Origin: a virus | Virus record (IMG/VR): IMGVR_UViG_3300021962_000023 | Coordinates: 134,535-198,534 of that record | Direction: 5' to 3' (one strand) | Length of the DNA stretch: 64,000 bases | Shown here: positions 2,671-63,555 of the stretch, piece by piece | Numbering within the stretch: position 1 is the stretch's first letter | Layout: each line of letters begins with the position of its first letter | Position numbers and translations under genes: made by a program | Notes under the pieces: generated by a model | Database searches by the model: none | What the model saw: the letters and a program-made list of their open reading frames with translations, nothing else | Told to the model about the DNA's origin: nothing

Positions 2671-3740
2671 TTAGATACAATTTCTTTTACAAATTTTCTA
2701 TATAAGCTAGCCGATACATGTCCTAACGGGCAATTACCATCTTTATAAATATCAATTAAACTCTCTTCTGTATGTATTACACCTCTTCTATATTGTTCCA
2801 TAAATAAAACATTAGCACTTATACCATCATTATAATTGATATCAAAATTTCTAATAGCCCATTCGGTAACTCCGCCAAATTTATGTAAATTTTCTTCTTC
2901 ATAGAACCAAAACGAATCCCAATCAATCATATTGTAATAATGATTCAAATATGGATTTTCAAAATATTCCATTTTAGAATTCCAAGTATTTGGTATATAT
3001 TTATTTTTAATTAGTTCATACATTTCATTATTCTTAGAACCATTTGGTTTAAAAATAGGAAATCCTCCTCCATTTACACAATTCAATACATATTCATCTG
3101 AAAAGTTATTAGCAATATTAAACATTTTGTATTTAATACCATTTGATTTAAAATACATTTGTAGCATTACAATTGTTTCTAAAAATACTAATAGACGTTC
3201 TTCATACGAATGTAAATGTCCTAAATTAAGATAAGCAAATTCTTTCATAGGATTTTTTATGTGGTCCATACCAAATCCACCCGAAAGAAAATAATATCCT
3301 TTTTCACCTATTTGATTTTTTTCTTCCACAAAATCATTAATATGTGCATAATCATCATCCCATCTCTTACGATGTTGTGGTAATTTTAATTTTGGATTTT
3401 CTTCTTGTTTAGATGGTGATACAAAATATGCATTTCTATAAAAAGATGACCATTGAACTATTACTGATATATCCGAAGGCGATATTCCTTCTTTTTTCAT
3501 TTTTTCTATTTTGTATATCAGATTTCTAGCTATAACTTGATTATCATTTGTGACATTTCCTAAATTGATTACTTTTAATTCAGAATTTAACAATTGAATC
3601 CAGTGTGGATAATAATTAAATTCAGATGAATCACCGTGACCGGACATATCATCTTCTTTTATAAAATTACTATCTGTAACATCTATATTGATTCTACCTG
3701 CTCTTGTAAAAGAACATCCGTTTGTAATTACATATTTCAT
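2655..3740 (-). CDS. SGNH/GDSL-like protein (GCSF type)
   Basis: N-terminal ITNGCSFT, VIVQWS and C-terminal GHVS resemble SGNH block I and the catalytic His region. Confidence 0.5.
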   Translation of the reverse strand: MKYVITNGCSFTRAGRINIDVTDSNFIKEDDMSGHGDSSEFNYYPHWIQLLNSELKVINLGNVTNDNQVIARNLIYKIEKMKKEGISPSDISVIVQWSSFYRNAYFVSPSKQEENPKLKLPQHRKRWDDDYAHINDFVEEKNQIGEKGYYFLSGGFGMDHIKNPMKEFAYLNLGHLHSYEERLLVFLETIVMLQMYFKSNGIKYKMFNIANNFSDEYVLNCVNGGGFPIFKPNGSKNNEMYELIKNKYIPNTWNSKMEYFENPYLNHYYNMIDWDSFWFYEEENLHKFGGVTEWAIRNFDINYNDGISANVLFMEQYRRGVIHTEESLIDIYKDGNCPLGHVSASLYRKFVKEIVSKWNLY

Positions 3741-13385: not shown

Positions 13386-14120
13386 TTATAACTTTTCTAA
13401 ATCTTTACAATGTTTCATTAAGTGATTATTATTTCCAGTCATGTCCCAAAATTTATAATCAGTTTCAGTTTTGAAATCAAAACAACACAATAAACCTAAT
13501 TCATTTTTAGTTAAACATCTGAATCCATGTTTATTTTCTTTTACATATTTATCGATGTTTTTTCTGAAATCATTTATTGTAGAACCATCTAATTTTTTGT
13601 TAGATACTGTGAAGAAATCAGTATAACATTCTTGTGCCCAACTAAAGTCACCTTTAGTATCAGCTGCTCCAATAAAATAAGGTGCGTTGATATAATCTCT
13701 CAACTTACCTGCCAATGTTTCGGAATAAACTAATTCATCATCTATCCAAAATTCATAGGTAAATGTTTCACCATCCCAATTTAATGTAAATAAATGTGGT
13801 TCATTCCAAAATGCTTCATCTTTATAGAATAAAATTTTATCAGCATATTTTTCTTCTTCGTTTTCAACATACCAAAAATTTAACATCAACATATCAGGCT
13901 TTCTATAAACGATTCCCGTATGTAATCCTCTTCTCATAAAGATTCCAGCCATATCATCTATTTTAGAATCATCTTCACTTCGTTTCCAAGTTCCACTTAT
14001 AGTCCAACTTGATTCATTCATTACATAAAACGCAGAGGTATCAATGATACCATAAGCGTTGTGTGGCCACCAAGGTAAATCTGCTAAAATTAATGGCGCT
14101 TTGTGTGATACTTTATACAT
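13386..14120 (-). CDS. LamG/concanavalin-A-like domain protein
   Basis: Beta-rich, with FWIDDELV, YFIG and a terminal DMTGNNNH typical of LamG-like folds. Confidence 0.5.
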   Translation of the reverse strand: MYKVSHKAPLILADLPWWPHNAYGIIDTSAFYVMNESSWTISGTWKRSEDDSKIDDMAGIFMRRGLHTGIVYRKPDMLMLNFWYVENEEEKYADKILFYKDEAFWNEPHLFTLNWDGETFTYEFWIDDELVYSETLAGKLRDYINAPYFIGAADTKGDFSWAQECYTDFFTVSNKKLDGSTINDFRKNIDKYVKENKHGFRCLTKNELGLLCCFDFKTETDYKFWDMTGNNNHLMKHCKDLEKL

Positions 14121-15520
14121 TATAACTTAATTTCTTTTGTAAAGTGATAAAATTCTTCTAATTCAGGGAATGTTTTACAAAAATCAGTTCCTCTTCTTTT
14201 ATCATGTTCGCTGAAGAATTTATAAAAATTGTAACGTGATTTATGTAATTCCATAGCATCGATAGGCGAAATCGCCCAATCGTATGTTCTTTTTAATTTT
14301 TGAATTTCCAAATCGGAATATCCAACATACCCCTTTGAATAATATGGAATTCCATAATAGAATGCCAATTGAGCTTGGTCAAATATGTTTTGTTTAAATT
14401 GATGTGGAAGTACTTGAACAGTTTGATGACGAGGATGTCTTAAATATGATGTATCCAATAATACTGGCGATAACCAGTATCTATCATCACCAGCATATTC
14501 TCTTTTCAAATCATATACTCCTTTAATTAATTTATCAAAACTGAATACTGATAACATATTGTATGTTACCATAAATGTAATAGTGATTCTTGGAACTTCT
14601 CTTAAAATTCTATTTACATTATTCCAAAAACGATTAAACTCCAATCCATTACGAATATATTCAGCTTGCTCACCCCATCCATCGCATGATGTAAATAACA
14701 CAAATCCTTTTACTTTATCTTCTTCGGTAATTCTTTTTAATTTTTCAATTAATTTAGTAATCAACTCATCGGGTACACCTAAATTTGAATTGATTGAAAA
14801 ATCTAAATTTTTATTTGGATTTGGTTCATCAATAATATAATCCAATACTTTCCAAGTATCTTTATGCATTAAAGGTTCACCGCCAGTAATTCTAAAGGTA
14901 TGTAAATCCCTATATAAGTCAGGCCACCATTTCCAAAATGCTTCTACATATGGATTATGTTCTCTCAATGGAATTGGCATCTTTTGTTCTGCTGCCAAAT
15001 GTTTTAAATCATTAAAACTATCCGTTGTATTATATGCACCATATTGTTGAATTTCCTCCATCCATTTAGTAGAAAATGTAGGTGAACAATATGAACATGC
15101 AAAGTTACAAGCATTTGAGAATGCAACTTCTACATAACGTGGGTTAAAATCATCTCTCCAATTTGAATTAATGATTTGGTCTGCTAAAGGCCAACTCCAA
15201 TCTTCCGATGATTTAAAAACTCTATCAGAATACAAATCGGAATTATCCTCAACCCCCCAACAATAATCACATTCAGAAGGTCTTGCGCCATTCATCATTT
15301 CTTTTCTTCTTTGCTTTTTAAACAAAGTGTTATGGAGTGCTGATGGATTCCGTTTAATCTCTTGTTCGGAAACTTTATGAGTATTAGGGTGGTGACACGA
15401 GTGATTGTGACCAGTGTGTAAGTGCGTTGTGACTTGTGTCCATTTCGCCAAACACATTCCCTTACCTACATTATCCAATGTATTCTTTACTTCTTCGTAA
15501 AGTGGTTTTTTATATGCCAT
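14120..15520 (-). CDS. radical SAM protein with an N-terminal twitch-like Cys/His region
   Basis: MCLAKW...HSCHH...CDYCW, then CNFACSYC, ITGGEPL and SINSNL. Confidence 0.85.
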   Translation of the reverse strand: MAYKKPLYEEVKNTLDNVGKGMCLAKWTQVTTHLHTGHNHSCHHPNTHKVSEQEIKRNPSALHNTLFKKQRRKEMMNGARPSECDYCWGVEDNSDLYSDRVFKSSEDWSWPLADQIINSNWRDDFNPRYVEVAFSNACNFACSYCSPTFSTKWMEEIQQYGAYNTTDSFNDLKHLAAEQKMPIPLREHNPYVEAFWKWWPDLYRDLHTFRITGGEPLMHKDTWKVLDYIIDEPNPNKNLDFSINSNLGVPDELITKLIEKLKRITEEDKVKGFVLFTSCDGWGEQAEYIRNGLEFNRFWNNVNRILREVPRITITFMVTYNMLSVFSFDKLIKGVYDLKREYAGDDRYWLSPVLLDTSYLRHPRHQTVQVLPHQFKQNIFDQAQLAFYYGIPYYSKGYVGYSDLEIQKLKRTYDWAISPIDAMELHKSRYNFYKFFSEHDKRRGTDFCKTFPELEEFYHFTKEIKL

Positions 15521-26393: not shown

Positions 26394-26573
26394 ATGAAAT
26401 ACGCTATGTTACAAATAAAAAAAGAAACCCATGAACTTCTCAAAAATTATTGCGAAGAACACGGGTTTAAAATGGGAAGTTTAGTGGAAAACTTAATTAA
26501 GAAACATGTTGGTGTAACTAAACCTCAAGCTAGTGTGTTGAAAGCTGACAAGGTTAGAAGTCAATCTTACTAA
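26394..26573 (+). CDS. ribbon-helix-helix (CopG/Arc-like) DNA-binding protein, 59 aa
   Basis: Hand translation gives MKYAMLQIKKETHELLKNYCEEHGFKMGSLVENLIKKHVG...: an alternating beta-strand, a helix, a G turn and a second helix. It is below the ORF-track size cutoff. Confidence 0.7.
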   Translation: MKYAMLQIKKETHELLKNYCEEHGFKMGSLVENLIKKHVGVTKPQASVLKADKVRSQSY

Positions 26574-29500
26574 ATCCATTTTCTTTTTTTATTTCTATCA
26601 ATCCATCTACGATATCTCGCATTTGTTCTAAGTGAGAAATTACCCAAATGAAATCAAATTGAGTTTTAAGATACTGCATCATCATAAATAAGGATGATAA
26701 GTTATCACTATCCAATGTACCAAATCCTTCATCGATTACTAAAAAGTTTGGACGAGGTAAATTACATACATTGATAAGTGCAACTCTAATAGCCAATCCA
26801 CTTACGAATTTCTCCATACCACTACACATTTCTAATGGCCACTCTTGGTCATCATAAACTATTTTTGCATTAATTGATTTACCATCAACTTCCATTACAA
26901 CTCCAAAATCTACTACTTGTGAAAGAATATTATTCACTTCATTTTCGATTACTGGCAATGCTTTAGAAATCAACTCATAAGGTATGCCATCTCTCTTAAC
27001 TGCATCTAAATAATAGGTGTATAGGCGATTCTTTTCTTCTAATTCCTTAACATCATTCATCTTACCTTTTATCCCCTCTATAAACGAAGATATGGAAGAA
27101 ATAGAACCATTCACACTTGCTATATCTTTAGTTACTTTTTTGATTTCACCTTCTATTTCGGATTTAGTTCTTTTTAAACCAGATATCACTTCGTTAATTT
27201 GTGCATTCTTTTTAATAGTTGCTTCATTGTCGTGATATTTCTGAATATTAACCTTAACCGATTCTAATTGATGTTCTAATAATTCTTCTTTAGTATTCAA
27301 TCCTTGCAATTCTGCTTCAGATTTTTCTTTAATAACAATTGCTTTACCATATTTAGCTCGCAACTCTAACATAGAATCGTATTGAGATTTTGCATCTTCA
27401 AACATATTCATAACATTAGAAAATCCACTTAAATCGTTTAAAGCTTCATCTACATTAACCTCTAAATATTCCAAATCTTCTTTTGCTTTCATTGCATCTT
27501 TTACGAATACATTATCACAACAAAATTTACAATTAGGGTCATATTGGTGTGAATCCAAATGTTTAATCTTCTCTTCCGCTGCTTCTAAAGTTTTTTGAGC
27601 AACATAGTAAATATTGTTTGCTACATTAAAATCCTTTTCGGCTTGTACATAATTGGAATTTGCTTCCTCAATATCAATATAATCATCTTCTGAAAAATAG
27701 AATTTCTTTTTATCTTCCATTGATGCTGATATCTCACTTATAACCTTTGTATAATTTTCTATATTTTCTACTTTGGCTTTCTTTTCTGCAAGAATGTGTA
27801 GGATATCTCTACCAATTGAATTTTGTTGTTTAGTTAAACTATCTAAATCCAAATTACCATCCATTGGAGTAAGTTCTGCACTTAATCCAACAATTCTATT
27901 ATTTAAATCAGTAGCATCATCGTTTAATCTACCCAATTCTTTTTCTAAATCCTTTAATTCAACCTTCTTATCTTTTAATTCAGTTGCCTTATCAGCCAAT
28001 TCAGATGTGAAATCGGTTTTCTTAAAGTTCTTAATTAGAACGGATACTTCTTTGATATCTTCGGTTGCAGTTTCATACAATTTATCGAATACATTCAATC
28101 CCATAAATTGTGCTAATAAATCTTTTCTTTCCGATTGTGATTTATCAATGAATAATGCGTTATTACCTTGTAATGAAAGAGCAGTTAATACGAAATCTTC
28201 ATACTTGCCAACATATTGTTCAATGATTTGGTTTGTATCTCGTCTCTCCGTTCCATTTAAAGATGTTTTATCATCCCCATCTTGTCTCCAGAATTGTACA
28301 TCTACTTTAACATTCTTTCCTTTGTTAATTGTCTTTGCGGTTCTTTCGATATGATAATCCAATCCATCAATTTGAAAGTGTAAATGACAAGAGAATTCTG
28401 ATTTACGATTATTTAGAATATTAGCTGCTTTGTAAGCTCTACTACTCTTATCATATAAACAAAATGATACTGCATCAAATAAAGATGATTTACCCTGTGC
28501 ATTTGGTGCAAATAATCCCATCAATCCACCTAACTTTGTGAAATCAATTTTGTTATTCTCTCCATAACTAAACATATTTGAAAACTCAAACTTAATTGGT
28601 TTCCATTGAATATTTCTTTGTACATCTTCATTTACAATTCTACTATTAATATCTCTATTGATTATTTGTAATTTATCCAAATCTTCTTTAACTACAAACG
28701 GCATCATTCTCTCAACATATTCATTGATAAGAGAGTTCTGATAATTGATATCCGAAATATCTTCAAAATCTAATTTGTTTAATCTATTACCTGTTTTTGA
28801 TTTAGAAAGAGAATCGGTTCTGATAATTGTGAAATCCTCAACACCATACCTCATCTTAATTTCAGCCATTACTCTTTTAGTATCAGCAGAATCAGTATTA
28901 GATAAACGAACTCTTAAACGAGGTTTCTTTGGCATATCCGATACAATAGGAACTTTCCCATTATCAATATCCATTGTGTAATATCCATAATCGTTGTGAA
29001 TATCAACCGATTCGTAAGTCATTGTATCCAAATTCCAAACAAGGAATCCGTGCTTATCCAAAGTTTCACCAAAGTTTTGTTGAACCAATGAACCGGCATA
29101 AACTACTTTACAACCTTTTGGAGAAATCATCTCTTGTCTTTTATGAATATCACCTAATAAGGCTAAATCATACCCATCGAACATATCGGTTGTAAAATGT
29201 CTACTACTTACAACATATCCAATATCTGTCATTGAATTATCAACTGGCCCGTGAAATAAAGCAATCTTTTTATTTCCACTTAAAGTTTCTGCTTTAGGCC
29301 AATTAGATTTATCATCAAAAATACTGAATACACCAAAATCCACTCCACCAATAGAGTAAACTTGCGTATCCCTCAAATATGTAAAGTTTGGTAAATTTAA
29401 TGCCTCCACAATTGGAGTAAGTACATCCAATCTATCGGAATTATTCATATTACAATCGTGATTACCTGTAATAAGAATAGTTTCACAATGTTTAGAACAT

Positions 29501-29715
29501 TCCGTAAATAACCAACTAATCTCTCTCACTAATTCGGGAGAAAGTTCCAATTTAGCATGAGCTATATCACCCGCTAAATAAATGATTGAATCTTCAGTTC
29601 CTCTTTGACGGATTTCTTCAAACATTTTTTCAAACACCTGTCTATACTCATTGTGTCTTTTCACATTACGGATGTGTACATCGGCAATATGATAAATCTT
29701 TTTTAATTTACTCAT
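26554..29715 (-). CDS. fused Mre11/SbcD nuclease and Rad50/SbcC ATPase (T4 gp47-gp46-like)
   Basis: Phosphoesterase motifs ADVH, GDIAH, GNHD and GDIH; Walker A APNAQGKSS; coiled coil with a CKFC hook; signature CSGMEK; Walker B VIDEGFGTLD. Confidence 0.92.
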   Translation of the reverse strand: MSKLKKIYHIADVHIRNVKRHNEYRQVFEKMFEEIRQRGTEDSIIYLAGDIAHAKLELSPELVREISWLFTECSKHCETILITGNHDCNMNNSDRLDVLTPIVEALNLPNFTYLRDTQVYSIGGVDFGVFSIFDDKSNWPKAETLSGNKKIALFHGPVDNSMTDIGYVVSSRHFTTDMFDGYDLALLGDIHKRQEMISPKGCKVVYAGSLVQQNFGETLDKHGFLVWNLDTMTYESVDIHNDYGYYTMDIDNGKVPIVSDMPKKPRLRVRLSNTDSADTKRVMAEIKMRYGVEDFTIIRTDSLSKSKTGNRLNKLDFEDISDINYQNSLINEYVERMMPFVVKEDLDKLQIINRDINSRIVNEDVQRNIQWKPIKFEFSNMFSYGENNKIDFTKLGGLMGLFAPNAQGKSSLFDAVSFCLYDKSSRAYKAANILNNRKSEFSCHLHFQIDGLDYHIERTAKTINKGKNVKVDVQFWRQDGDDKTSLNGTERRDTNQIIEQYVGKYEDFVLTALSLQGNNALFIDKSQSERKDLLAQFMGLNVFDKLYETATEDIKEVSVLIKNFKKTDFTSELADKATELKDKKVELKDLEKELGRLNDDATDLNNRIVGLSAELTPMDGNLDLDSLTKQQNSIGRDILHILAEKKAKVENIENYTKVISEISASMEDKKKFYFSEDDYIDIEEANSNYVQAEKDFNVANNIYYVAQKTLEAAEEKIKHLDSHQYDPNCKFCCDNVFVKDAMKAKEDLEYLEVNVDEALNDLSGFSNVMNMFEDAKSQYDSMLELRAKYGKAIVIKEKSEAELQGLNTKEELLEHQLESVKVNIQKYHDNEATIKKNAQINEVISGLKRTKSEIEGEIKKVTKDIASVNGSISSISSFIEGIKGKMNDVKELEEKNRLYTYYLDAVKRDGIPYELISKALPVIENEVNNILSQVVDFGVVMEVDGKSINAKIVYDDQEWPLEMCSGMEKFVSGLAIRVALINVCNLPRPNFLVIDEGFGTLDSDNLSSLFMMMQYLKTQFDFIWVISHLEQMRDIVDGLIEIKKENGFSKIDF

Positions 29716-49353: not shown

Positions 49354-51051
49354 TTATTTCTTTTTATGAACTATAAATCCACTAATAGCTAAATAATCCA
49401 TATCACAATTTAAAAATGTTTCAATTGCGGTTTTAGGGTCATTTACCATAGTTTGTCCTCTTAAATTAAATGATGTATTTAAAAGTATTGGAGTTCCACT
49501 TATTTTTTTAAATTGTTTAAGTAATTTATAATATAGAGGATTTTGCTCTTTCTTTACAGTTTGTATTCTCGCCGAATTATCAACATGGGTTACTGATGGA
49601 ATCTTTTTATAATTTGTAACTTTAACAACTTGATTCATATAAGGAACATCTTCTTCTGAAGTAAAATATTTCGTATATTCATCGTGAGTTACCGATGGGG
49701 CAAATGGTCTAAACATTTCTCTTTTCTTTACAACTTTATTAATTCTATCTCTAATATCGGATATATGTGGGTTTCCTAATATAGAACGATTACCCAATGC
49801 TCTAGCACCAAATTCAGTTCTACCTTGAAACCATCCTACGATATTACCTTCGTTGATTAAATTAGCAACTTGCTCTACTAATAATTTATCAGTTGGATAT
49901 GATGAAACCTCTATCCCATCAAATGTATTCAATATATCCAATATTTCATTGATATCAAATTCTTCTCCTAAATATGGAGATTGATTATCCCCACCCTTTA
50001 TCTTTGGATGGTTCATCATATCATGCCAAAAGTATAAACAAGCTCCAATAGCAGAACCAGCATCGGATGGTGCATATGGAATCCATACATTCTTAACTCC
50101 ACAATGTTTTTTGATTTTACCATTAGCAGTACCATTATAAGCAGAACCACCTCCTAATACTAAATTAGAACTTTTAATGTGAGAAGTTGCATGATTAATT
50201 AAATAGTATAGACATCCTTCATACCATTTTTGTAAAGAAGCTGCAAGTTCCATATGATGCAATTCTATTTCAGATTCTGGCATTCTTGGCTCGAATCCTA
50301 TCAATTCAACTAAATCATATGTAAACATATCGGTATTTGAGTATTCCCAAGTAAAATATTTCTGATTTATATTAATTAAATTCTCACCACCAAATGATGT
50401 AAATCTATTGAATATATCATAGTATTTATCCGAATTACCATATGGTGCTAATCCCATAACTTTATATTCTCCACTATTTGGTTTAAATCCTAAATAAGCA
50501 GTTATAGTAGAATACACCAATCCCAATGAATTTGGAAATTTAATTGTTTTTATTTCGGAAATTCCATTTAAATCACATTTGGCCATAGAAACAGTATCCC
50601 ATTCACCTACCCCATCGATTGATAATCCAATTGCATCATCAAATGGCGATGTATAAAATGAAAGAGCTAAATGAGATAAGTGATGTTTTACAAACACCAA
50701 AGAGCCGGTATATCCAATTCCCTCTAATATTGCCTCCAATGCACCTTCACCGGCTTTCCAATCTTTTTTAAACTTATTCCAACTTTTCCATTGAGATATC
50801 CATCTATTACCTAAAGTCTTTTCAACTCTATCGTATTTTATATCCGAATCCTCATACCAACATACCACATCAACTTCATCAATAGTAATGTGTGCATAAT
50901 CCAAACATTTTTGAATTGCTTTAAACGGAAAAGAGTTGTCATGCTTTATGCCCGACAACTTCTCTTCTTCTATTGCGAATATTACCTTACCATCTATTAA
51001 TAAAGCTGCTGCTGAATCATGGTAAAATGCGGATAATCCTAATTTAATCAT
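49354..51051 (-). CDS. carbamoyltransferase (NodU/CmcH family)
   Basis: Motifs YHDSAAAL, HHLSH, DGVGE, GEYKVMGLAPYG, EFGARALGNRSIL, RPFAP and LNTSFN. Confidence 0.95.
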   Translation of the reverse strand: MIKLGLSAFYHDSAAALLIDGKVIFAIEEEKLSGIKHDNSFPFKAIQKCLDYAHITIDEVDVVCWYEDSDIKYDRVEKTLGNRWISQWKSWNKFKKDWKAGEGALEAILEGIGYTGSLVFVKHHLSHLALSFYTSPFDDAIGLSIDGVGEWDTVSMAKCDLNGISEIKTIKFPNSLGLVYSTITAYLGFKPNSGEYKVMGLAPYGNSDKYYDIFNRFTSFGGENLININQKYFTWEYSNTDMFTYDLVELIGFEPRMPESEIELHHMELAASLQKWYEGCLYYLINHATSHIKSSNLVLGGGSAYNGTANGKIKKHCGVKNVWIPYAPSDAGSAIGACLYFWHDMMNHPKIKGGDNQSPYLGEEFDINEILDILNTFDGIEVSSYPTDKLLVEQVANLINEGNIVGWFQGRTEFGARALGNRSILGNPHISDIRDRINKVVKKREMFRPFAPSVTHDEYTKYFTSEEDVPYMNQVVKVTNYKKIPSVTHVDNSARIQTVKKEQNPLYYKLLKQFKKISGTPILLNTSFNLRGQTMVNDPKTAIETFLNCDMDYLAISGFIVHKKK

Positions 51052-56515: not shown

Positions 56516-57736
56516 TTAAATCAATTTTAATTCAATCTCATTTTCAAAGTTTTTATTAAAAATATCTAGCATAGAGTTCTCGTATGTTATTTTTTTAATA
56601 AAAATATCTCTACATTCATCCATCCATTCTTTACATAATATGTAATTGTTTTCAAAATCATTCATAAATTTTTCTACAAATTTTACAAATAATTTATAAT
56701 CTCCTTTTATTAATTTAAAATCAGTCATAAATGGGTGCGACCTGATACCAATTAATTTTTCTAAAACTTCCAATGGATATGAATGTGTTGATATGAATGG
56801 TATACCTGCCAAAATTAATCCAACTGTTTTTTCGGATAAATATTGAGATGTAAAATCTTGTTTACACCAAGCCCAACTTTCATCCAATACTTGCATTTTT
56901 GCTTTTGGTAAAACTCTATAAAATAAATCCATACCAATTCCATCAAACCAACTTATCCAAGTTAAATTTTCAAAATCATTATTACCTAATACGGAATTTA
57001 ATTTTATATCCTTTACATCGGATTCATATGGCGTTGAATATGTTATTCTATTAATACCATTTGTTCTTTGTAATAATAAATTCGGAATATTTAATTTATA
57101 TAATTCTTTTAATGCATTTACTCTGTGTAATTTATGATTACGAACTGAATACATTAAATCATAATCGAAATTTAATTTTTTATATATTTCATTAAATTCA
57201 TAATACCATCTAATACCAATTAATTCATTCCATTGGAATATAGTATTAGTAAATGTAGTAAATACATTTTTATATTCATTGGCATTGTGTATAAATACAT
57301 TATCGGTTATCAGTATGTGCTGATTTAAACAAGATAATACATTTTCTATTTCACATATATCGGGAGACCAATTTACATCCCTTATACCAAATAATTTTTC
57401 AGTTCTAAATAATGTAAGTATCCATCCTTTTTTATATTTTAGTAATTCCACAAATCTTTTAAAAAATGGTAAATCTTCAACACCGCTGGTTATATCGATA
57501 TCCCTATAATATTCATATTCATTTTTATTTCTTAAAGATGTAAAGAAATCTATTAAATGATACCCATCTTCGGCATCATGTAAAATGGGATTAAACACAA
57601 ATGTAAATTCATTATTATTGTATTTACATTTTATTTCACCAATTTTACCTTTTATATCATATTCTCTATCGGTAGTATTATGTGCTAATTTGTAAAATAA
57701 TGAATTAGAAAAATAATGATGTACATATATTTTCAT
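56516..57736 (-). CDS. putative glycosyltransferase (GT10-like C-terminal motif)
   Basis: VLDESW...YLSEKTVGLILAGIPFI is similar to the C-terminus of 5744..7066. Confidence 0.45.
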   Translation of the reverse strand: MKIYVHHYFSNSLFYKLAHNTTDREYDIKGKIGEIKCKYNNNEFTFVFNPILHDAEDGYHLIDFFTSLRNKNEYEYYRDIDITSGVEDLPFFKRFVELLKYKKGWILTLFRTEKLFGIRDVNWSPDICEIENVLSCLNQHILITDNVFIHNANEYKNVFTTFTNTIFQWNELIGIRWYYEFNEIYKKLNFDYDLMYSVRNHKLHRVNALKELYKLNIPNLLLQRTNGINRITYSTPYESDVKDIKLNSVLGNNDFENLTWISWFDGIGMDLFYRVLPKAKMQVLDESWAWCKQDFTSQYLSEKTVGLILAGIPFISTHSYPLEVLEKLIGIRSHPFMTDFKLIKGDYKLFVKFVEKFMNDFENNYILCKEWMDECRDIFIKKITYENSMLDIFNKNFENEIELKLI

Positions 57737-58149
57737 ATCATTGATAGTTTAATATTCTTTTTCTTAAACCCTTCTACTAATTTCCAATATTCTTCACCAC
57801 CATAGTAAGTACATATTTCTTCGCCTACTTCAATATTTTTAATAGCAATAAATTGAAATGCTTTATGTGTTGGATGATTTTTCCAATATGCATTATTATT
57901 ATTTGAATGATTATAAATACATCCATTACCCAATGGTAAAACATACTCTTCAACTTTACCTTCTGCCGGATAATTAAATTTATAATCGTACAAAAAGAAT
58001 GATTGTTCGCCTGGTTTAAATGGTAGGGTTATTAAATGACATTCTTCAATTATCTCACCTGCTTTAATTTCTTCAATAGCAAATACACCCAAACCATGTA
58101 TAGGGGATTCTTTAACTTCTACCTTTGTTGCTACTTTTAAATTTATCAT
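57733..58149 (-). CDS. SET-domain methyltransferase
   Basis: Motifs SPIHGLGVFA, IKAGE, IYNHS..NN, IEVGEEIC..Y and YW. Confidence 0.92.
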   Translation of the reverse strand: MINLKVATKVEVKESPIHGLGVFAIEEIKAGEIIEECHLITLPFKPGEQSFFLYDYKFNYPAEGKVEEYVLPLGNGCIYNHSNNNNAYWKNHPTHKAFQFIAIKNIEVGEEICTYYGGEEYWKLVEGFKKKNIKLSMI

Positions 58150-58151
58150 AA

Positions 58152-58853
58152 CTATATCAATGTTTTATTGATTTTTGGAATTGGTAAATTATACTTGTCT
58201 TTACCCACATAATGCGTATAGTATTCATTTGGAGTTCTTAATCTATTTGAAAAATTATATAGATTTAATCCATCAGATAGTATTGTTAATAAATATTGAG
58301 ATGTTATTGTGCAACATAAATCAAATGTTTTTAAACTATTTTTTCTAATTTTACAAAATTCATATAATTTAAACCACCTATCTAAGTATAATTCTTTTAA
58401 TTCTTTATTATTTATTTTAAGAGTTCCAATATTCATAACTCTTTGTTTTCTAACCTCCCATTCAGGTATTATATCCGATATACCCAATCCATCCAATTCA
58501 TTTACACAATCATCATAAATACTTAACCAACTCTCCCATCCATCAAAATATACATCTATTGAATTATCTAACTCCGGTAATCTGTTATGAAATATAACAT
58601 CACCATCTACTAATATATAATCATCATTTCTATTTAGTGGTATTGTTTTAAATGCATCCCAAAAAACAAACTCATCAGTTACTATATGTTTAATATCTAT
58701 CAAATCATCAAACCAATCACAATTAGAATATAATTCAGTTTGGTATCCCAGTAGTTTAGCAGAATTTATACTATTTGTATAATATGATTTCAACACATTT
58801 AACTTATGTGCATCCGTATTTACATTAATATCGAATGTATAAATTAAATTCAT
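58152..58853 (-). CDS. putative GT-A glycosyltransferase-like protein
   Basis: Motifs LVDGDVIF (DxD), MNIGTL and YTHYVG. Confidence 0.5.
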   Translation of the reverse strand: MNLIYTFDINVNTDAHKLNVLKSYYTNSINSAKLLGYQTELYSNCDWFDDLIDIKHIVTDEFVFWDAFKTIPLNRNDDYILVDGDVIFHNRLPELDNSIDVYFDGWESWLSIYDDCVNELDGLGISDIIPEWEVRKQRVMNIGTLKINNKELKELYLDRWFKLYEFCKIRKNSLKTFDLCCTITSQYLLTILSDGLNLYNFSNRLRTPNEYYTHYVGKDKYNLPIPKINKTLI

Positions 58854-59584
58854 TATATGATACTTTTATTAAAAATAGCATTTATATGATTGAAGAATGT
58901 TTGCTGAAATTTTAATTCCGATGCATAATGTGTATAGTTGTTATACTCTCTACAAAATTTATAGGATATGTTATTCTTATCCATCAATCTAGCAAAATAA
59001 TATTCACATATCACAATTGATGGGTCATTCCATTGAGTTAAATTTTCAGTAGGTTCTATTGTTTTTAAATACCATTCTCTAAATTGATAATAACGATTTA
59101 TTAATAAATTTTTAGTATGCAAATTGTTGAATTTTAAAATACCAACATTGCACGCATTCAATCCACTATAATCAAAACTATTTATATATTTTGATGTATT
59201 GTATTTTTTAAACACCTCCATATATCTTTTGAACTTTTTATTTTTGGTATTTAAAAGTTTTGTTTCAAATAGTACATCGCAATCATCTGGCAAAATTAAT
59301 TTTGATTCTAATATAATATCACCATCGATTGTAACGCAATTCAACCCTTCTCTTTGATGTATGAATATTTTTAAATCATCGGTTAATATAAATTCTTCAT
59401 CTTCTATACTAACAAATTCATCTATATCATCTATTAAATTTTCATACATAAAATTACATCCGTAAAACTTAATCTTATAACCTAAACTTCTAGCTCTACG
59501 CATAGCTGCTTTATAGTATATTACTACCCAATCGTTATCGGTATAATTACCCATTTTTGTAGTAAAACTATAAACTAATTTCAT
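58853..59584 (-). CDS. putative GT-A glycosyltransferase-like protein (paralog)
   Basis: Motifs TIDGDIIL (DxD), CNVGIL and YTHYAS. Confidence 0.5.
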   Translation of the reverse strand: MKLVYSFTTKMGNYTDNDWVVIYYKAAMRRARSLGYKIKFYGCNFMYENLIDDIDEFVSIEDEEFILTDDLKIFIHQREGLNCVTIDGDIILESKLILPDDCDVLFETKLLNTKNKKFKRYMEVFKKYNTSKYINSFDYSGLNACNVGILKFNNLHTKNLLINRYYQFREWYLKTIEPTENLTQWNDPSIVICEYYFARLMDKNNISYKFCREYNNYTHYASELKFQQTFFNHINAIFNKSII

Positions 59585-59967
59585 ATTAATTCTTTCTGAA
59601 TAATTATTTCTTCTTCAATGTAATCGTAATCTATTATTGAATACCTATCTATTAACGATTCTGGCAATTCTATCAAATCAACTACATTCATATAATTTAT
59701 AGTCAATTCTTCGAAAACGGATATTTCTTTGTTGGTATATATTTCAATACTATCTTTATTTAGAATTAAATTACAATTTGGATTTCGGTTATGATTTAGA
59801 TATCTACCCAATGGATTAGTTTCAACCCACCCATTATAGATGAATCTGCTTTCTATTGTAATTGGTTCTGATTTTGTGAAATAGTTACCTATTAATGTAT
59901 TAAATGGAATTACTTTGGATGATATAATACCAATTCCTCTTGAATTAAATTTGTATCGCTTAAACAT
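59581..59967 (-). CDS. SET-domain protein
   Basis: Motifs RGIGIIS, RYLNHNRNPN and ISVFEELTINY. Confidence 0.8.
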   Translation of the reverse strand: MFKRYKFNSRGIGIISSKVIPFNTLIGNYFTKSEPITIESRFIYNGWVETNPLGRYLNHNRNPNCNLILNKDSIEIYTNKEISVFEELTINYMNVVDLIELPESLIDRYSIIDYDYIEEEIIIQKELI

Positions 59968-60473
59968 TATAACATTGATTTTTGAATATCGAAATCGGAT
60001 TCGTATAAAAATAAAACCAATGAATATCTTTCACCGGATTCCAATATAGTTACTTCATGCTGAGCCGTTGGCGATATAGTAGTCAATGAACCAATCACTC
60101 TCGATTGTGGAGTATTTTCAACTATTAAATCCCCACCAATATAATCAGTAGATTCGGATAATTGAACTAATAATGTTTTATAAATAATATCAACTCCATA
60201 TTTCGAAAAATCCTGATGTTTAGCCAAACTACCACCCCTACCATATTTCATAATCTTTATGGTAGGTATATTCTTAACCTTTAAAGGTTTTAGTTTTTCT
60301 AAAAGAAAATCCTTTAATTCCGAATTATCAATTGTTACAAATTTGGCAGAACTGCCTTTTCTGAATTTTATTGGGATACCATTAAGAGTGTGAGTATCCA
60401 TACCATCTACTTCCTTATAAAGTTTATAGAATGATTTTATATACTCACACTCTTCCTTTGAAAACATAACCAT
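59967..60473 (-). CDS. 2OG-Fe(II) oxygenase (P4Hc/PKHD-like)
   Basis: Motifs MKYGRG..LAKHQD, YIGGDL, HEVT and GERYSLV. Confidence 0.85.
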   Translation of the reverse strand: MVMFSKEECEYIKSFYKLYKEVDGMDTHTLNGIPIKFRKGSSAKFVTIDNSELKDFLLEKLKPLKVKNIPTIKIMKYGRGGSLAKHQDFSKYGVDIIYKTLLVQLSESTDYIGGDLIVENTPQSRVIGSLTTISPTAQHEVTILESGERYSLVLFLYESDFDIQKSML

Positions 60474-60484
60474 TTAAAAAAATA

Positions 60485-60622
60485 TTAAGAATGTTTATTC
60501 TTCACATATTGTATAAAATTTACCAATATTGTGTTTATCGATTGATTTGTAGCAGATGAAGTCGGAACTACTGCTTTATTATCCAAATCAACTTTAGTAA
60601 AAGTTTTATATACTACTGCCAT
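60485..60622 (-). CDS. small ORF, 45 aa
   Basis: Hand translation gives MAVVYKTFTKVDLDNKAVVPTSSATNQSINTILVNFIQYVKNKHS*. It fills the 157-nt gap, leaving 7- and 11-nt spacers. Confidence 0.6.
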   Translation of the reverse strand: MAVVYKTFTKVDLDNKAVVPTSSATNQSINTILVNFIQYVKNKHS

Positions 60623-60629
60623 AATATTA

Positions 60630-62897
60630 TTATTTGTTATGTACTAAAATTCCGTTTGCGTAAAAGTTATGATTATCTTCTACTGTTATGATATAAGTTT
60701 GAGTATCTTTCTCATCCAATTCGATGATATCTTTGATGGCTGTTTTACTTACACCATTTGATAAATAAACCATATCACCCGCTTTAATCTGTCTAACATC
60801 TCTATCCAATTCATATCTTCTATTAGTTAAGAATGGGGTAAATGATGCCAATTCCAAATTACCAACATAGAATGGGTGGTCGAATGTAGAAGTGATTGAA
60901 GTTTGATTAGCAAATTCATATTTAACTAAATCATTATGAATTGGAGTTTTTAATCCAATTACTTTTTTAACTTCATTTTGTAAAGTAGATTCATTGAATG
61001 AAAGTACTTCATCACCAACTACAACATCTTCGATACTCTTTTCAGAACCATCTCCCATAGTTACTTTAGTTCCTGCTACAAAACAGAATCCACCACCATA
61101 TTTAAAGTTATGTACTAATAAATTTTCAGCGTAATATGTGTGATTATCTTTAACATCTAAAATGTGATAAACCTCAACTTCGCCTAAAATAGTTTCTTTT
61201 TCAATTACAATAGTTTCATTACCATCTCTATTAATTAGAATATCATCTAATGTAATATCTTGTGCGGCAATCCATCCTTTACCCTTCACATAGAACTTAT
61301 GTAATGCAGTAGATTTAACTTCATTACCATCATCCGTTTTATGTCTGATTAATAAGTGTTCTTTTTTCTTTACAATATTACCAATCGCACCTTCTGTTTT
61401 TTCACCAGTAAGTTCGTTGTATGTTAATAATTTATCACTCAATGTTAAATCTTCGATATTCTTTTGAGTACCATCTGCTAAAGTAATTTTAGTTCCAGCA
61501 GGGAAACAGTTGTGAGTAACAATCTTAACACTTAACTCACCATTTGAAAGGAAGTAAGTATCAGATGTTTCCATATCAACAATATATGTTTTATAATCAC
61601 CATCTAATATCTCTACGATAACTGAACTAATATTAATTAATCCACCTGTTAAGTTGATTAATTGATGTTGTGTTGCATCTAATTTTGAAATAGATTCGTA
61701 ACGAATACAATCTAACTCAATATCGTGTACCAATAAGTGAACACCACCCGATGCTCTAAATTCAGAACCATCTTCCATTGTAATATGGAATGCCAAATTA
61801 TATGCTAATGGTTGTTCAATCTTATTAATTAAAACCGATGAGGTTTCATATGAACCAGATGGTAATTCTGCACCAGGCCAGTTCCAATTCATAAATTCAG
61901 ATACAACATCGGTATCAGGTGCAGAATTGATAAAATATGATTTGAATTCATCACCAACCGATGCACTACTAATTAAGATAGTAGAGCCATCTGCTTTAAT
62001 AATTTCTTCTTCTTCAAATATACCACCCCAATTGTACACATTTGTAAACTTAGGGAAGTTTGTAGTTAATTCGTAATAATGTTTTATATTAGTTTCGTTT
62101 GCTATATTCTCATCATCGTATTCGATTGATGCAGGTTTATCAAATAATCCCTGATTTTTGAATGTAGATACATTTATCATATCTAAATTACCACCATAAA
62201 TTATATTGAAAGAACGAATCGATTCAACTTTATCATTCTCCGTATTTTCGTAGAACTTAATAAGTAAACGATTCTCTGGAAATGAACCAATAAATTCTTC
62301 GTATCTATTTTCAGTAGTTTCGTTTGATTTACCAATCTTATAAAAAGATAATGGGTTTGTAGTTGTAGCTACTAAATTCTTTACCGCCACATCCGGCATA
62401 TTAGCAGAATTGATATCATATGGTAAGTTATTAAACACATATGAATCAGTAGAAGAAGATACATAGTATTCTACAATAGAACCCGTATCATCATTTTCCT
62501 GAAACAATTGTAAAGGAGCTAATTTATTTTTAGCATATTCTGAATCAAAGATTGATGATTCATCGTAAGCCAATCTTAATATAAATTTATCACTACCATC
62601 CGCAATTGAAGATGGATATATCGTAGATGGTTCTTCTTCTACGGTATTAAATGATGTGATAAATGGTGCAGAAGTTGATACACTTTGAGATAATGAAGCT
62701 ACAATATCATCTTGGAAATTTTTGTGTATAACATGCAATTGAGTAATCGCTGAACCGGATAATACATTAATAAAATCTGTCCAATCTAAATATTGAATAG
62801 CGTTGTAAACACATGCAGTATCGGTATTCACTTCCATTAATCGTAAATTACCTTCACTATCCTGTATAAAATCCGCTGAGAAAAAAGTTCCTTTCAT
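60630..62897 (-). CDS. GspS-type (circularly permuted) ATP-grasp-like domain fused to three tandem Hint domains
   Basis: N-terminal ADFIQDSEGNLRLMEVNTDTAC. Hint1 aa292-463 (GIF...ADG...THN), Hint2 aa464-597 (CFPAGT...STALH...VHN), linker FKYGGGF, Hint3 aa605-754 (CFVAGT...STFDH...VHN), then K-stop. Confidence 0.8.
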   Translation of the reverse strand: MKGTFFSADFIQDSEGNLRLMEVNTDTACVYNAIQYLDWTDFINVLSGSAITQLHVIHKNFQDDIVASLSQSVSTSAPFITSFNTVEEEPSTIYPSSIADGSDKFILRLAYDESSIFDSEYAKNKLAPLQLFQENDDTGSIVEYYVSSSTDSYVFNNLPYDINSANMPDVAVKNLVATTTNPLSFYKIGKSNETTENRYEEFIGSFPENRLLIKFYENTENDKVESIRSFNIIYGGNLDMINVSTFKNQGLFDKPASIEYDDENIANETNIKHYYELTTNFPKFTNVYNWGGIFEEEEIIKADGSTILISSASVGDEFKSYFINSAPDTDVVSEFMNWNWPGAELPSGSYETSSVLINKIEQPLAYNLAFHITMEDGSEFRASGGVHLLVHDIELDCIRYESISKLDATQHQLINLTGGLINISSVIVEILDGDYKTYIVDMETSDTYFLSNGELSVKIVTHNCFPAGTKITLADGTQKNIEDLTLSDKLLTYNELTGEKTEGAIGNIVKKKEHLLIRHKTDDGNEVKSTALHKFYVKGKGWIAAQDITLDDILINRDGNETIVIEKETILGEVEVYHILDVKDNHTYYAENLLVHNFKYGGGFCFVAGTKVTMGDGSEKSIEDVVVGDEVLSFNESTLQNEVKKVIGLKTPIHNDLVKYEFANQTSITSTFDHPFYVGNLELASFTPFLTNRRYELDRDVRQIKAGDMVYLSNGVSKTAIKDIIELDEKDTQTYIITVEDNHNFYANGILVHNK

Positions 62898-62922
62898 AAA
62901 AAGTTTTATATTATGTTTGTAT

Positions 62923-62931: not shown

Positions 62932-63165
62932 TCATTTTTCTACTTTATCCCATTTATGTAAATCACATGAACCCATAGTTGGGGTAAATATCTTTTTACC
63001 AATAGGACAACCACATTCGGCACACTTTTTAGTAAATACTACCGAATCAACCATAGAATCGCAAGTGTTACATATAGCCAATCTTTTCTTAGCCAATTCA
63101 GCTTGTTCTTTGGATGGCATTTCCGCAATCACCCAAGCTCTGAATATATCTACTATACTACTCAT
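62932..63165 (-). CDS. small Cys-rich protein (DUF6171-like)
   Basis: RLAICxxC...CAECGCP...C..HKW pattern. Confidence 0.65.
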   Translation of the reverse strand: MSSIVDIFRAWVIAEMPSKEQAELAKKRLAICNTCDSMVDSVVFTKKCAECGCPIGKKIFTPTMGSCDLHKWDKVEK

Positions 63166-63464
63166 ACTATCTTCATTAAATCGTTAATGCGTTTACAATT
63201 CTCAAAGAATTCGTTATGTAACATTCTCTGATACATCCAATCCAATAAATCTCTAAACTCCTCTCTTTTAATTGTTATATAAGCAGGAATACCTTGAAAA
63301 CGAAATACAACCAACTCTTTGGCAGATTTATTGTTCTTAAACACATCAATCATATCGATGATGGTTTCCATATGGTCTTTGGTTAATTCTACTCTACTGA
63401 TGTAATCTTTCCAATCTAATTGGATGTAACCTTTTTCTAACTTAGATAACGCTTTGGAATTCAT
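63162..63464 (-). CDS. hypothetical protein
   Basis: 100-aa ORF downstream of a promoter, with an ATGA-type overlap with the next gene. Confidence 0.65.
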   Translation of the reverse strand: MNSKALSKLEKGYIQLDWKDYISRVELTKDHMETIIDMIDVFKNNKSAKELVVFRFQGIPAYITIKREEFRDLLDWMYQRMLHNEFFENCKRINDLMKIV

Positions 63465-63527: not shown

Positions 63528-63555
63528 AAAATAAGGGAGAATTTCTTCTCCCTTA
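63525..63555 (-). terminator. Rho-independent terminator
   Basis: The minus strand reads TAAGGGAGAA-GAAA-TTCTCCCTTA followed by TTTTTT. Confidence 0.85.

Follow-up and report, generated by a model that had tools for sequence, protein, structure and literature searches.

We analysed a 64,000-nucleotide window from a virus, the final 64 kb (positions 134,535 to 198,534) of the 198,534-bp IMG/VR record IMGVR_UViG_3300021962_000023, which CheckV rates as complete, and concentrated on one minus-strand gene (P0001, 60630-62897) that encodes a 755-amino-acid protein with an ATP-grasp ligase-like domain followed by three Hint domains. The protein appears to represent a large, virus-restricted family in which an ATP-grasp domain is joined to a Hint that has kept only the C-terminal half of its active site, followed by a varying number of complete Hints. 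We put the probability at roughly 0.5 that the gene encodes a self-processing ligase precursor, whose mature core would act together with a small partner protein and with neighbouring enzymes that share a C-terminal tail.

The gene is a stop-free open reading frame (ORF) with more than 700 homologues of the same layout, and its 755-residue translation bore out the motif of the original prediction, D-F-x-x-D-x-x-G-x-L-x-L-x-E-V-N-T-D-T-A-C, at residues 9-29. From the N-terminus, and with all coordinates on the minus strand, the predicted parts are a minimal circularly permuted ATP-grasp domain (residues 1-290; 62028-62897), recognized by fold, motif and column statistics; a half-disabled Hint, here called Hint0 (residues 292-463; 61509-62024), recognized by its fold match to BIL and Hedgehog domains and its conserved terminal His-Asn (HN); a BIL-type Hint1 (residues 464-597; 61107-61508); the spacer FKYGGGF (residues 598-604; 61086-61106); and a mini-intein-like Hint2 (residues 605-754; 60636-61085), after which come only Lys755 and the stop codon. 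Hint0, Hint1 and Hint2 are the domains that the original prediction had numbered one to three. In an AlphaFold2 (AF2) model of the full-length protein, the individual domains were confident, the predicted template modelling score (pTM) was 0.48, and the junctions at residues 285-288, 460-463 and 598-604 were disordered, so that the model depicts the protein as beads on a string.

Back-to-back Hints could in principle arise through misassembly, as had been conceded at the outset. This explanation was ruled out by the more than 700 homologues of the same layout, by independent DNA runs of several studies that contain the stretch, and by the sequences of Hint1 and Hint2, which are only 29% identical (E 3e-18) and are thus old paralogues rather than products of mis-assembly. 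Apparent joints in one DNA run (X3) had sides shorter than 30 letters and were disregarded. Contigs from the freshwater RNA libraries of three studies overlap the gene at 60623-61123, 61217-62024 and 62514-62905, although they are possibly derived from DNA and do not prove transcription; the parts without coverage carry no meaning.

For the N-terminal part, we built an AF2 model of residues 1-463 from a core alignment of 98 diverse homologues (alignment A2; the family counts out of 98 below refer to it). The model reached a predicted local distance difference test (pLDDT) value of 93.1 and a pTM of 0.87, suggesting that the ATP-grasp domain and Hint0 behave as a single rigid unit. We then compared the model with 48,161 PDB representatives using VIA, a fold search independent of Foldseek. 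For residues 1-284, the leading matches were permuted ATP-grasps: the glutathione-synthetase-like 5oeu (Z 9.3), YgiC (7uka, Z 9.1), GspS (2io7, Z 8.8), the glutathione synthetase (GS) of T. brucei (2wyo, Z 8.7) and trypanothione synthetase (Z 7.2). The alignments scoring Z 9.3-8.4 covered 203-222 residues of this region and, in YgiC, chain residues 94-381. By contrast, the classical ATP-grasps RimK, LysX/ArgX and TTLL scored at Z ~6 and aligned only from about residue 50 onwards. Foldseek also retrieved YgiC (E 1.6e-5) and GspS (E 2e-5), with a probability of 1.0. The ESM Atlas supplied weak leads only, at 0.75 (GSP_synth, TTL/YheCD and GshA), and a BFVD fold search returned nothing but Hint-containing viral proteins.

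Profile alignment with hhalign was collinear between family residues 3-253 and YgiC 95-373, and placed Asp9, Glu22 and Asn24 on YgiC Asp102, Glu115 and Asn117, the intervals of 13 and 2 residues being the same in both. Lys173, from the family's P-D-x-x-V-K, fell on the Lys of YgiC V-I-K-P. We take the three YgiC residues to be metal-binding and the Lys of I-K-P to be ATP-binding. Across the family, Asp9, Glu22 and Asp118 are invariant (98/98), Asn24, Thr25, Arg108 and Arg228 are each present in 97/98, and Lys173 is present in 93/98; Asp9, Glu22 and Asn24 form the predicted metal triad. On the evidence of the model, the N-terminal domain is best described as a distant, trimmed member of the circularly permuted ATP-grasp group that holds GspS, YgiC and the eukaryotic GS enzymes.

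Residues 289-463, the Hint0 part of the model, gave their best VIA matches with the Tetrahymena BUBL BIL2 domain (Z 19.6) and the Clostridium BIL 2lwy (Z 19.4), followed by mini-inteins and Hedgehog at Z 17-18 (Hedgehog 1at0, Z 17.6). The site of the catalytic Cys1 is occupied by Gly292; the position is Gly in 90/98 homologues, Ser in one, and never Cys or Thr. Neither the block-B His nor the TxxH pattern is conserved, whereas the block F acids are kept (Asp441; Glu443, 93/98; Asp446, 97/98), as are His462 (97/98) and Asn463 (98/98) of block G. Both the fold score and these columns confirmed the first Hint of the original prediction, with its Gly in place of Cys1, altered TxxH and terminal HN. 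The residue that follows Asn463 is mostly not a nucleophile, being Ala in 29 homologues, Cys in 19, Pro in 9, and mostly hydrophobic in the remainder. With Cys1 and TxxH lost and the block F acids and HN retained, Hint0 is predicted to keep exactly the Asn-cyclization, or C-terminal cleavage, half of an intein active site, and without an N-terminal nucleophile it could not hand over its N-extein, despite the presence of Cys464 at the +1 position. The ATP-grasp catalytic residues and His462-Asn463 thus stand out in the alignment as the universally conserved parts of the protein.

By comparison, Hint1 and Hint2 are predicted to be catalytically complete and of BIL type. Hint1 matched the Pfam family PT-HINT (PF07591) with 64.4 bits against a cut-off of 27.7 (E 1.7e-17), and Hint2 matched Intein_splicing with 54 bits, as well as Hint. 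Among PDB profiles, the canonical Hints matched BIL domains at E 2e-26 and 4e-24, and inteins at 5e-14 or weaker; Hint2 is also 33-35% identical to the mini-inteins of Vibrio phage helicases. The catalytic set of Hint1 comprises Cys464, Thr530-x-x-His533 and His596-Asn597, all of which (C464, T530, H533, H596 and N597) are invariant in a second alignment (A1). That of Hint2 comprises Cys605, a TxxH with His674, and His753-Asn754, with Cys605 and His674 present in at least 90% of A1. The junctions read T-H-N463 directly followed by C464-F-P, then V-H-N597, FKYGGGF and C605, and finally V-H-N754-K and the stop codon, exactly as first described. Neither Hint1 (134 residues) nor Hint2 (150 residues) gave a LAGLIDADG or HNH match, in agreement with the proposed lack of a homing endonuclease.

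The +1 residues, Phe598 after Hint1 and Lys755 after Hint2, are neither Cys, Ser nor Thr. True protein splicing was rejected for all three domains, Hint0 lacking Cys1 and the other two lacking a +1 nucleophile; as no Hint has what splicing requires, cleavage is the expected chemistry. The features of a type-A BIL (Cys1, TxxH, a terminal HN, no endonuclease and no need for a +1 nucleophile) are all found in Hint1 and Hint2, and Hint0 has their C-terminal half only. The initial view of three Hint folds with graded competence, cleaving rather than splicing, is therefore supported by the missing Cys1 or the missing +1 nucleophile of each.

The same cannot be said of the spacer, which had been proposed as a peptide for conjugation. 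In the AF2 model it has low pLDDT, and the stretches between HN and the next Cys1 range across relatives from 0 to 21 residues, unrelated in sequence and often rich in Gly, Pro or Thr. Within the close clade of the window protein, all that is kept after the HN of Hint1 is [FLI]-K-Y; the Gly run behind it differs in length. We accordingly rejected FKYGGGF as a conserved tag on account of this variation in length and sequence; in the window protein it looks like a flexible linker.

To place the gene in its family, we searched with its N-terminal region. Clustered at 90%, the matches numbered at least 701 proteins; clustered at 50%, they came to 228 representatives. All of them lie on viral or metagenomic contigs of up to 326 kb. 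In phages of marine, estuarine and fresh waters the family is abundant. All 98 aligned sequences have Met1, and the listed homologues align, with few exceptions, from their own residue 1. In 185,579 prokaryote genomes, a relative was found on a single contig of 2.8 kb, and a tblastn search of 50,697 phage GenBank records gave no relative, the Hint parts alone being matched, in Vibrio and Ruminococcus phages. From its sequence distribution, the family appears large and virus-restricted. The 2.8-kb contig (L086, CAYNGR010000277.1) was binned into a Cyanobium metagenome-assembled genome; it is probably binned phage DNA and offers a weak host hint for one clade.

The search for the same architecture called for in the original prediction succeeded for one part and failed for the other: the ATP-grasp domain and Hint0, ending in HN, form the constant part in more than 700 relatives, whereas the spacer is not conserved. 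Beyond the HN, the relatives differ widely. Short forms of 460-500 residues continue for only 1-35 residues, and the number of canonical Hints ranges from none to three, with one in proteins of ~610-650 residues, two in those of ~730-790 and three in those of ~905. The Hint-free proteins P0235, P0238 and P0263, and that of locus L003 (1557-3047), have a tail of 30-35 residues with 7-9 Cys after the HN. In some relatives the last Hint has been swapped for a different Hint type. A tree of 62 distinct N-domains requires at least 7 changes in Hint number; of 200 label shuffles, the five listed required 23-27. An ordered cascade of three Hints, the central proposal of the original prediction, is thus not what the family has conserved.

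The surroundings of the gene add three elements that were absent from the original prediction: a 45-residue partner ORF, a 2-oxoglutarate (2OG) oxygenase and a C-terminal tail shared by neighbouring enzymes. We examined gene context in 83 related loci and tail enrichment in 61 distinct loci. The partner, which we call the micro-ORF (60485-60622, minus strand), lies 7 nt downstream of the gene. An ORF of 43-53 residues occupies this position in 80/83 loci. In the remaining three, an ORF of 47 or 50 residues lies ~90-100 nt downstream, or one of 218 residues stands there instead. The micro-ORF also adjoins a Hint-free relative of merely ~23% identity. Its alignment (A3) has an invariant Tyr5, a nearly invariant Lys6 and a helix-like C-terminus, N-F-x-x-Y-x-K-x-K-H-S, and it matched no family in the libraries searched. 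A 302-residue metagenomic protein, P0232, joins a degenerate ATP-grasp-like N-terminal part, in which the metal triad is lost, directly to a C-terminus resembling the micro-ORF helix (F-F-R-V-I-K-T-K-H-R). This protein may have arisen by natural fusion, hinting that the ligase and the micro-ORF protein bind each other, or through assembly or frameshift.

Downstream of the micro-ORF, six consecutive minus-strand genes (56516-60473) share a C-terminal tail, which is strict in four and loose in two. The strict tail was scored as K-x-[LIMV]-[ILFMV] and observed as K-x-[LIM]-[IL]. The first of these genes (59967-60473) encodes a 2OG-Fe(II) oxygenase resembling prolyl 4-hydroxylases, assigned through PHROG 61 and a PF13640 match below the curated cut-off; its product ends in K-S-M-L, and a homologue adjoins the micro-ORF in 68/83 loci. 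It is followed by a SET protein (59581-59967, ending KELI), by two proteins without a family match, of 243 residues (58853-59584, ending KSII) and 233 residues (58152-58853, ending KTLI), all three with the strict tail, and then, with the loose tail, by a second SET protein (57733-58149, ending K-L-S-M-I) and a 406-residue protein without a family match (56516-57736, ending L-K-L-I). Among the 61 minus-strand ORFs of at least 60 residues in the window, the strict tail occurs in only four, all directly after the micro-ORF. Across the 61 loci, the strict tail is present on 31-43% of the ORFs from +1 to +6, compared with 3-14% of those from -3 to -8. Collectively, these sequence patterns suggest that the ligase-Hint0 core, the micro-ORF and the tailed enzymes form a widespread phage module. 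The Hint-free relative in L003 is flanked by at least six 2OG oxygenase genes and a methyltransferase gene.

Directly upstream of the gene lies an ORF for a 77-residue Cys-rich CxxC protein (62932-63165, minus strand), assigned to phrog_13558 with a weak DUF6171 match. It has BLAST matches in 15 loci and a distant homologue in L003 at 3191-3478, where it stands downstream. A sequence scan further identified a terminator-like hairpin with a 10-bp stem and a T-run (63532-63555, minus strand) between ORFs of 107 and 100 residues, and a TATAAAT motif lies ~25 nt before the ATG of the 100-residue ORF (63162-63464). Together, the hairpin and the motif possibly mark the start of a transcription unit containing the gene. 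Sigma-70-like promoter matches were fewer than expected from shuffled sequence.

The virus itself is a large myovirus, with genes for a baseplate wedge, a tail fibre and a fused SbcCD-like protein. Judged by its gp6-like baseplate protein, it is closest among cultured phages to Microcystis phage Mel-JY01 (43%) and to Flavobacterium phages (40%). The stretch is present, in whole or in part, in DNA runs of 14 studies that sampled marine, estuarine and fresh water. The fused gene (26554-29715, minus strand) is a single ORF of 1053 residues that unites both subunits, an SbcD/Mre11-like nuclease (residues 5-349) and an SbcC/Rad50-like ATPase (residues 281-1052). Two further genes stand amid structural genes, one for a Nol-like carbamoyltransferase (49354-51051, minus strand; PHROG 1601, E 1e-122) and one for a radical-SAM protein (14120-15520, minus strand).

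From these observations we propose a mechanistic model for the 755-residue protein as a self-processing ligase precursor. The ATP-grasp domain would be an active amide ligase of the GspS/YgiC type. Asn463 would cyclize in a single cut that sheds everything downstream, leaving a mature ligase-Hint0 protein of 463 residues. Hint1 and Hint2 would cut only their own ends, through N-S shifts at Cys464 and Cys605 and cyclization of Asn597 and Asn754, and would be removable, dispensable cassettes, flexibly linked by FKYGGGF and repeatedly gained and lost. They may aid cleavage where Cys464 abuts Asn463, or may simply be tolerated as self-removing. The mature core would then act with the co-inherited 45-residue Tyr-Lys protein, in a module with the 2OG oxygenase, the SET proteins and the other tailed enzymes, probably forming an ATP-dependent amide bond on the carboxylate of a peptide or protein. 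As the closest characterized relatives activate the C-terminal carboxylate of a peptide, the substrate is most economically guessed to be the carboxylate of a protein or peptide.

Several points weigh against this model, whose weakest link is the proposed cooperation of the mature core with the 45-residue protein and the tailed enzymes. The GspS-like N-terminal domain of the original prediction stood in its fold, motif and metal triad, but it did not stand in sequence profiles. The hhalign probability of the family profile against YgiC was only 9-11%, a comparison that stayed weak since the search for YgiC homologues gave solely sequences 77-100% identical. The Pfam GSP_synth (PF03738) hidden Markov model (HMM) found no match in the genome at E <= 10, with positive E. 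coli and Caulobacter controls; neither Pfam nor PHROGs gave a match to residues 1-463, an ATP-grasp family included. Membership of GSP_synth in the Pfam sense was accordingly rejected, and with the HMM silent and hhalign weak, the homology is carried by fold plus motif. The domain also lacks the first ~94 residues of YgiC, and its substrate binding may therefore differ completely. That the shared C-terminal tail is possibly the substrate of the ligase is an idea drawn from the YgiC analogy. In some one-Hint clades (L060, L062, L066, L068 and L076, from different clades), the spacer between Hint0 and Hint1 keeps a motif of about P-[FY]-G-x-G-R-[WM] over 8-12 residues, and their micro-ORFs end without K-H-S; the spacer may exceed a linker role there. 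Finally, Hints acting as pure leaving groups would not explain why a terminal Hint keeps its HN before a lone Lys.

Several other readings were weighed. In a more ambitious scheme, which we regard as doubtful, the ligase-Hint0 core, its 45-residue Tyr-Lys partner and the tailed enzymes would together be a new viral machine for conjugating proteins or peptides: the ATP-grasp domain would activate the C-terminal carboxylate of a protein, for example that of the tail, and the Hint module would give either the acceptor, an N-terminal Cys exposed by cleavage at Asn463, or a thioester relay, following an E1/E2-like logic assembled from parts of ATP-grasps and inteins. The tagging cascade favoured in the original prediction, in which thioesters at Cys464 and Cys605 activate the ligase C-terminus or FKYGGGF for transfer to a target in the manner of BUBL, now seems quite unlikely. 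It would make sense of the full set of residues for the N-S acyl shift and Asn cyclization in the canonical Hints, of the direct N463-C464 junction in the window's clade and of the [FLI]-K-Y kept after Hint1 by close relatives, and the solved structures nearest to these Hints are indeed a bacterial BIL and the BIL2 domain of BUBL, a type of locus for whose BIL domains conjugation of their own flanks has been proposed or shown. Nevertheless, relatives manage with anything from zero to three Hints, and where the junction is HN-A-P-C, or the spacer one or two residues long, nothing meaningful is left for transfer. The length of the Gly run is variable in the way of a linker, and the micro-ORF and tailed enzymes accompany Hint-free forms too. 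If instead the segment after the HN of Hint0 were itself the product, in this phage a spacer with an Asn-lyase to its N-side and a thioester-forming Cys1 to its C-side, the locus would resemble a factory for peptides that are made by ribosomes and modified after translation (RiPPs), with the peptide decorated by the tailed enzymes on a ligase-Hint scaffold and released, possibly cyclic or as a C-terminal thioester. The Cys-rich tails of 30-35 residues directly after HN in short freshwater relatives, the spacer motif of the one-Hint clades, and the adjacent hydroxylase, methyltransferases and other enzymes, which are typical tailoring types, all speak for this idea; RiPP cores are normally hypervariable, and the order HN, peptide, Cys1 mirrors engineered SICLOPPS constructs, one structure of this kind (5ol6) being among the fold matches. 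We still consider it improbable, because the window protein has a Hint0-Hint1 spacer of zero length and F-K-Y plus glycines as its sole bracketed peptide, in many relatives the HN is followed by a spacer of just 1-3 residues or by a lone Lys, and neither the strictly conserved ATP-grasp site nor the 45-residue ORF would have a role.

Two other explanations concern the Hints as such. Hint1 and Hint2 could be selfish, intein-derived parasites of the C-terminus, their catalysis kept only since the host ligase needs them removed, and would then contribute nothing to function. The likeness of Hint2 to the Vibrio phage mini-inteins, the repeated changes in copy number, the replacement of the last Hint by another type and the beads-on-a-string arrangement would all fit, but no homing endonuclease drives their spread, and they always insert at one place, right behind a Hint that itself cleaves there. 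We give this explanation a low probability as a rival, and it is compatible with a self-processing ligase precursor rather than exclusive of it. At the other extreme, no processing would occur at all, and the Hints would be stable domains of a working full-length protein, for instance docking sites for the tails or the small partner. Such docking would give the tail a reader, and non-cleaving Hint folds exist, such as the AXH module, which also scored in our Pfam scan. What makes this very improbable is the pattern of conservation: the five invariant residues of Hint1, His462 and Asn463 of Hint0, and Cys605 of Hint2 are needed for chemistry, not for fold.

Among known systems, the nearest to the ligase are the E. 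coli peptide-spermidine ligases YgiC/YjfC, the synthetase domain of glutathionylspermidine synthetase (GspS) and the eukaryotic GS, with which it shares the circularly permuted ATP-grasp fold. Further common features are the D-x13-E-x-N metal motif, with which the permuted unit opens, and the ATP-binding Lys of V/I-K. In these enzymes, the carboxylate of a peptide is activated and then linked to an amine; RefSeq annotates YgiC as a peptide--spermidine ligase, for which PMC12270671 cites Pederick et al. 2023. The viral domain differs from these enzymes in being only 290 residues long, fused to a Hint, devoid of the N-terminal YgiC segment, restricted to viruses and without a GSP_synth match.

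On the Hint side, the type-A BIL 2lwy and the Tetrahymena BUBL BIL (6tmm/6y75) gave the best profile or fold matches of all three Hints. The likeness extends to Cys1, TxxH, an HN without a +1 nucleophile, the lack of an endonuclease, the tandem arrangement and the tiny flanks, features with which cleavage or transfer is expected. Unlike those domains, however, the Hints of the window protein sit at the extreme C-terminus with only a linker and one Lys to release, there is no ubiquitin-like cargo, and from the first copy the N-terminal half of the active site is entirely gone. Hint0 is also comparable to Asn peptide lyases and to intein mutants capable of C-terminal cleavage only, as it keeps just what Asn cyclization requires (the acids of block F, the next-to-last His and the final Asn), but in contrast to those mutants it is natural, conserved and welded to an enzyme domain. 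A canonical intein was rejected, given the absence of Cys1 from Hint0, the absence of a +1 Cys, Ser or Thr from Hint1 and Hint2, and the lack of host-protein halves to rejoin; as for an insertion into a host protein, the flanks are the 7-residue linker and one Lys, and Hint-free relatives end after HN and a short tail. A Hedgehog or Hog domain was likewise rejected, all three Hints ending in HN without a sterol-recognition extension, and the Z score of 17.6 to 1at0 reflects the shared Hint fold.

The PF07591 score of Hint1, and the family pattern of a conserved N-terminal part, a Hint and a variable C-terminal piece, recall the Pretoxin-HINT domains of polymorphic toxins. This assignment was rejected as well: no toxin or other domain follows the last Hint, and the next gene is the family-wide 45-residue ORF in a phage enzyme operon, not an immunity gene. 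A small conserved protein of ~45 residues beside an ATP-grasp ligase and tailoring enzymes also resembles the LysW-LysX/ArgX systems and RiPP loci, and ArgX and LysX are among the weaker fold matches (VIA Z 6.6 and 5.8). Here, by contrast, the last residues of the small protein are K-H-S rather than an acidic residue, and the tags are on the enzymes, not on a peptide; the locus yielded neither a known RiPP family nor a recognition element.

Our literature searches on Hint, ATP-grasp, phage, GspS and RiPP brought up no account of an ATP-grasp domain fused to a Hint, of a naturally one-sided Hint, of the partner ORF or of the tail. Hints are known as inteins, as Hedgehog and BIL autoprocessors and as releasers of toxins, and ATP-grasps as ligases of carboxylates with amines, whereas a natural, strongly conserved fusion of the two is apparently undescribed in the papers and family libraries searched, making the family a widespread piece of uncharacterized phage biochemistry. 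If our model holds, Hint0 would represent a new self-cleaving module for protein engineering, one that performs C-terminal cleavage only and without thiols, and the family would possibly give viruses a new way of modifying or joining proteins or peptides during infection.

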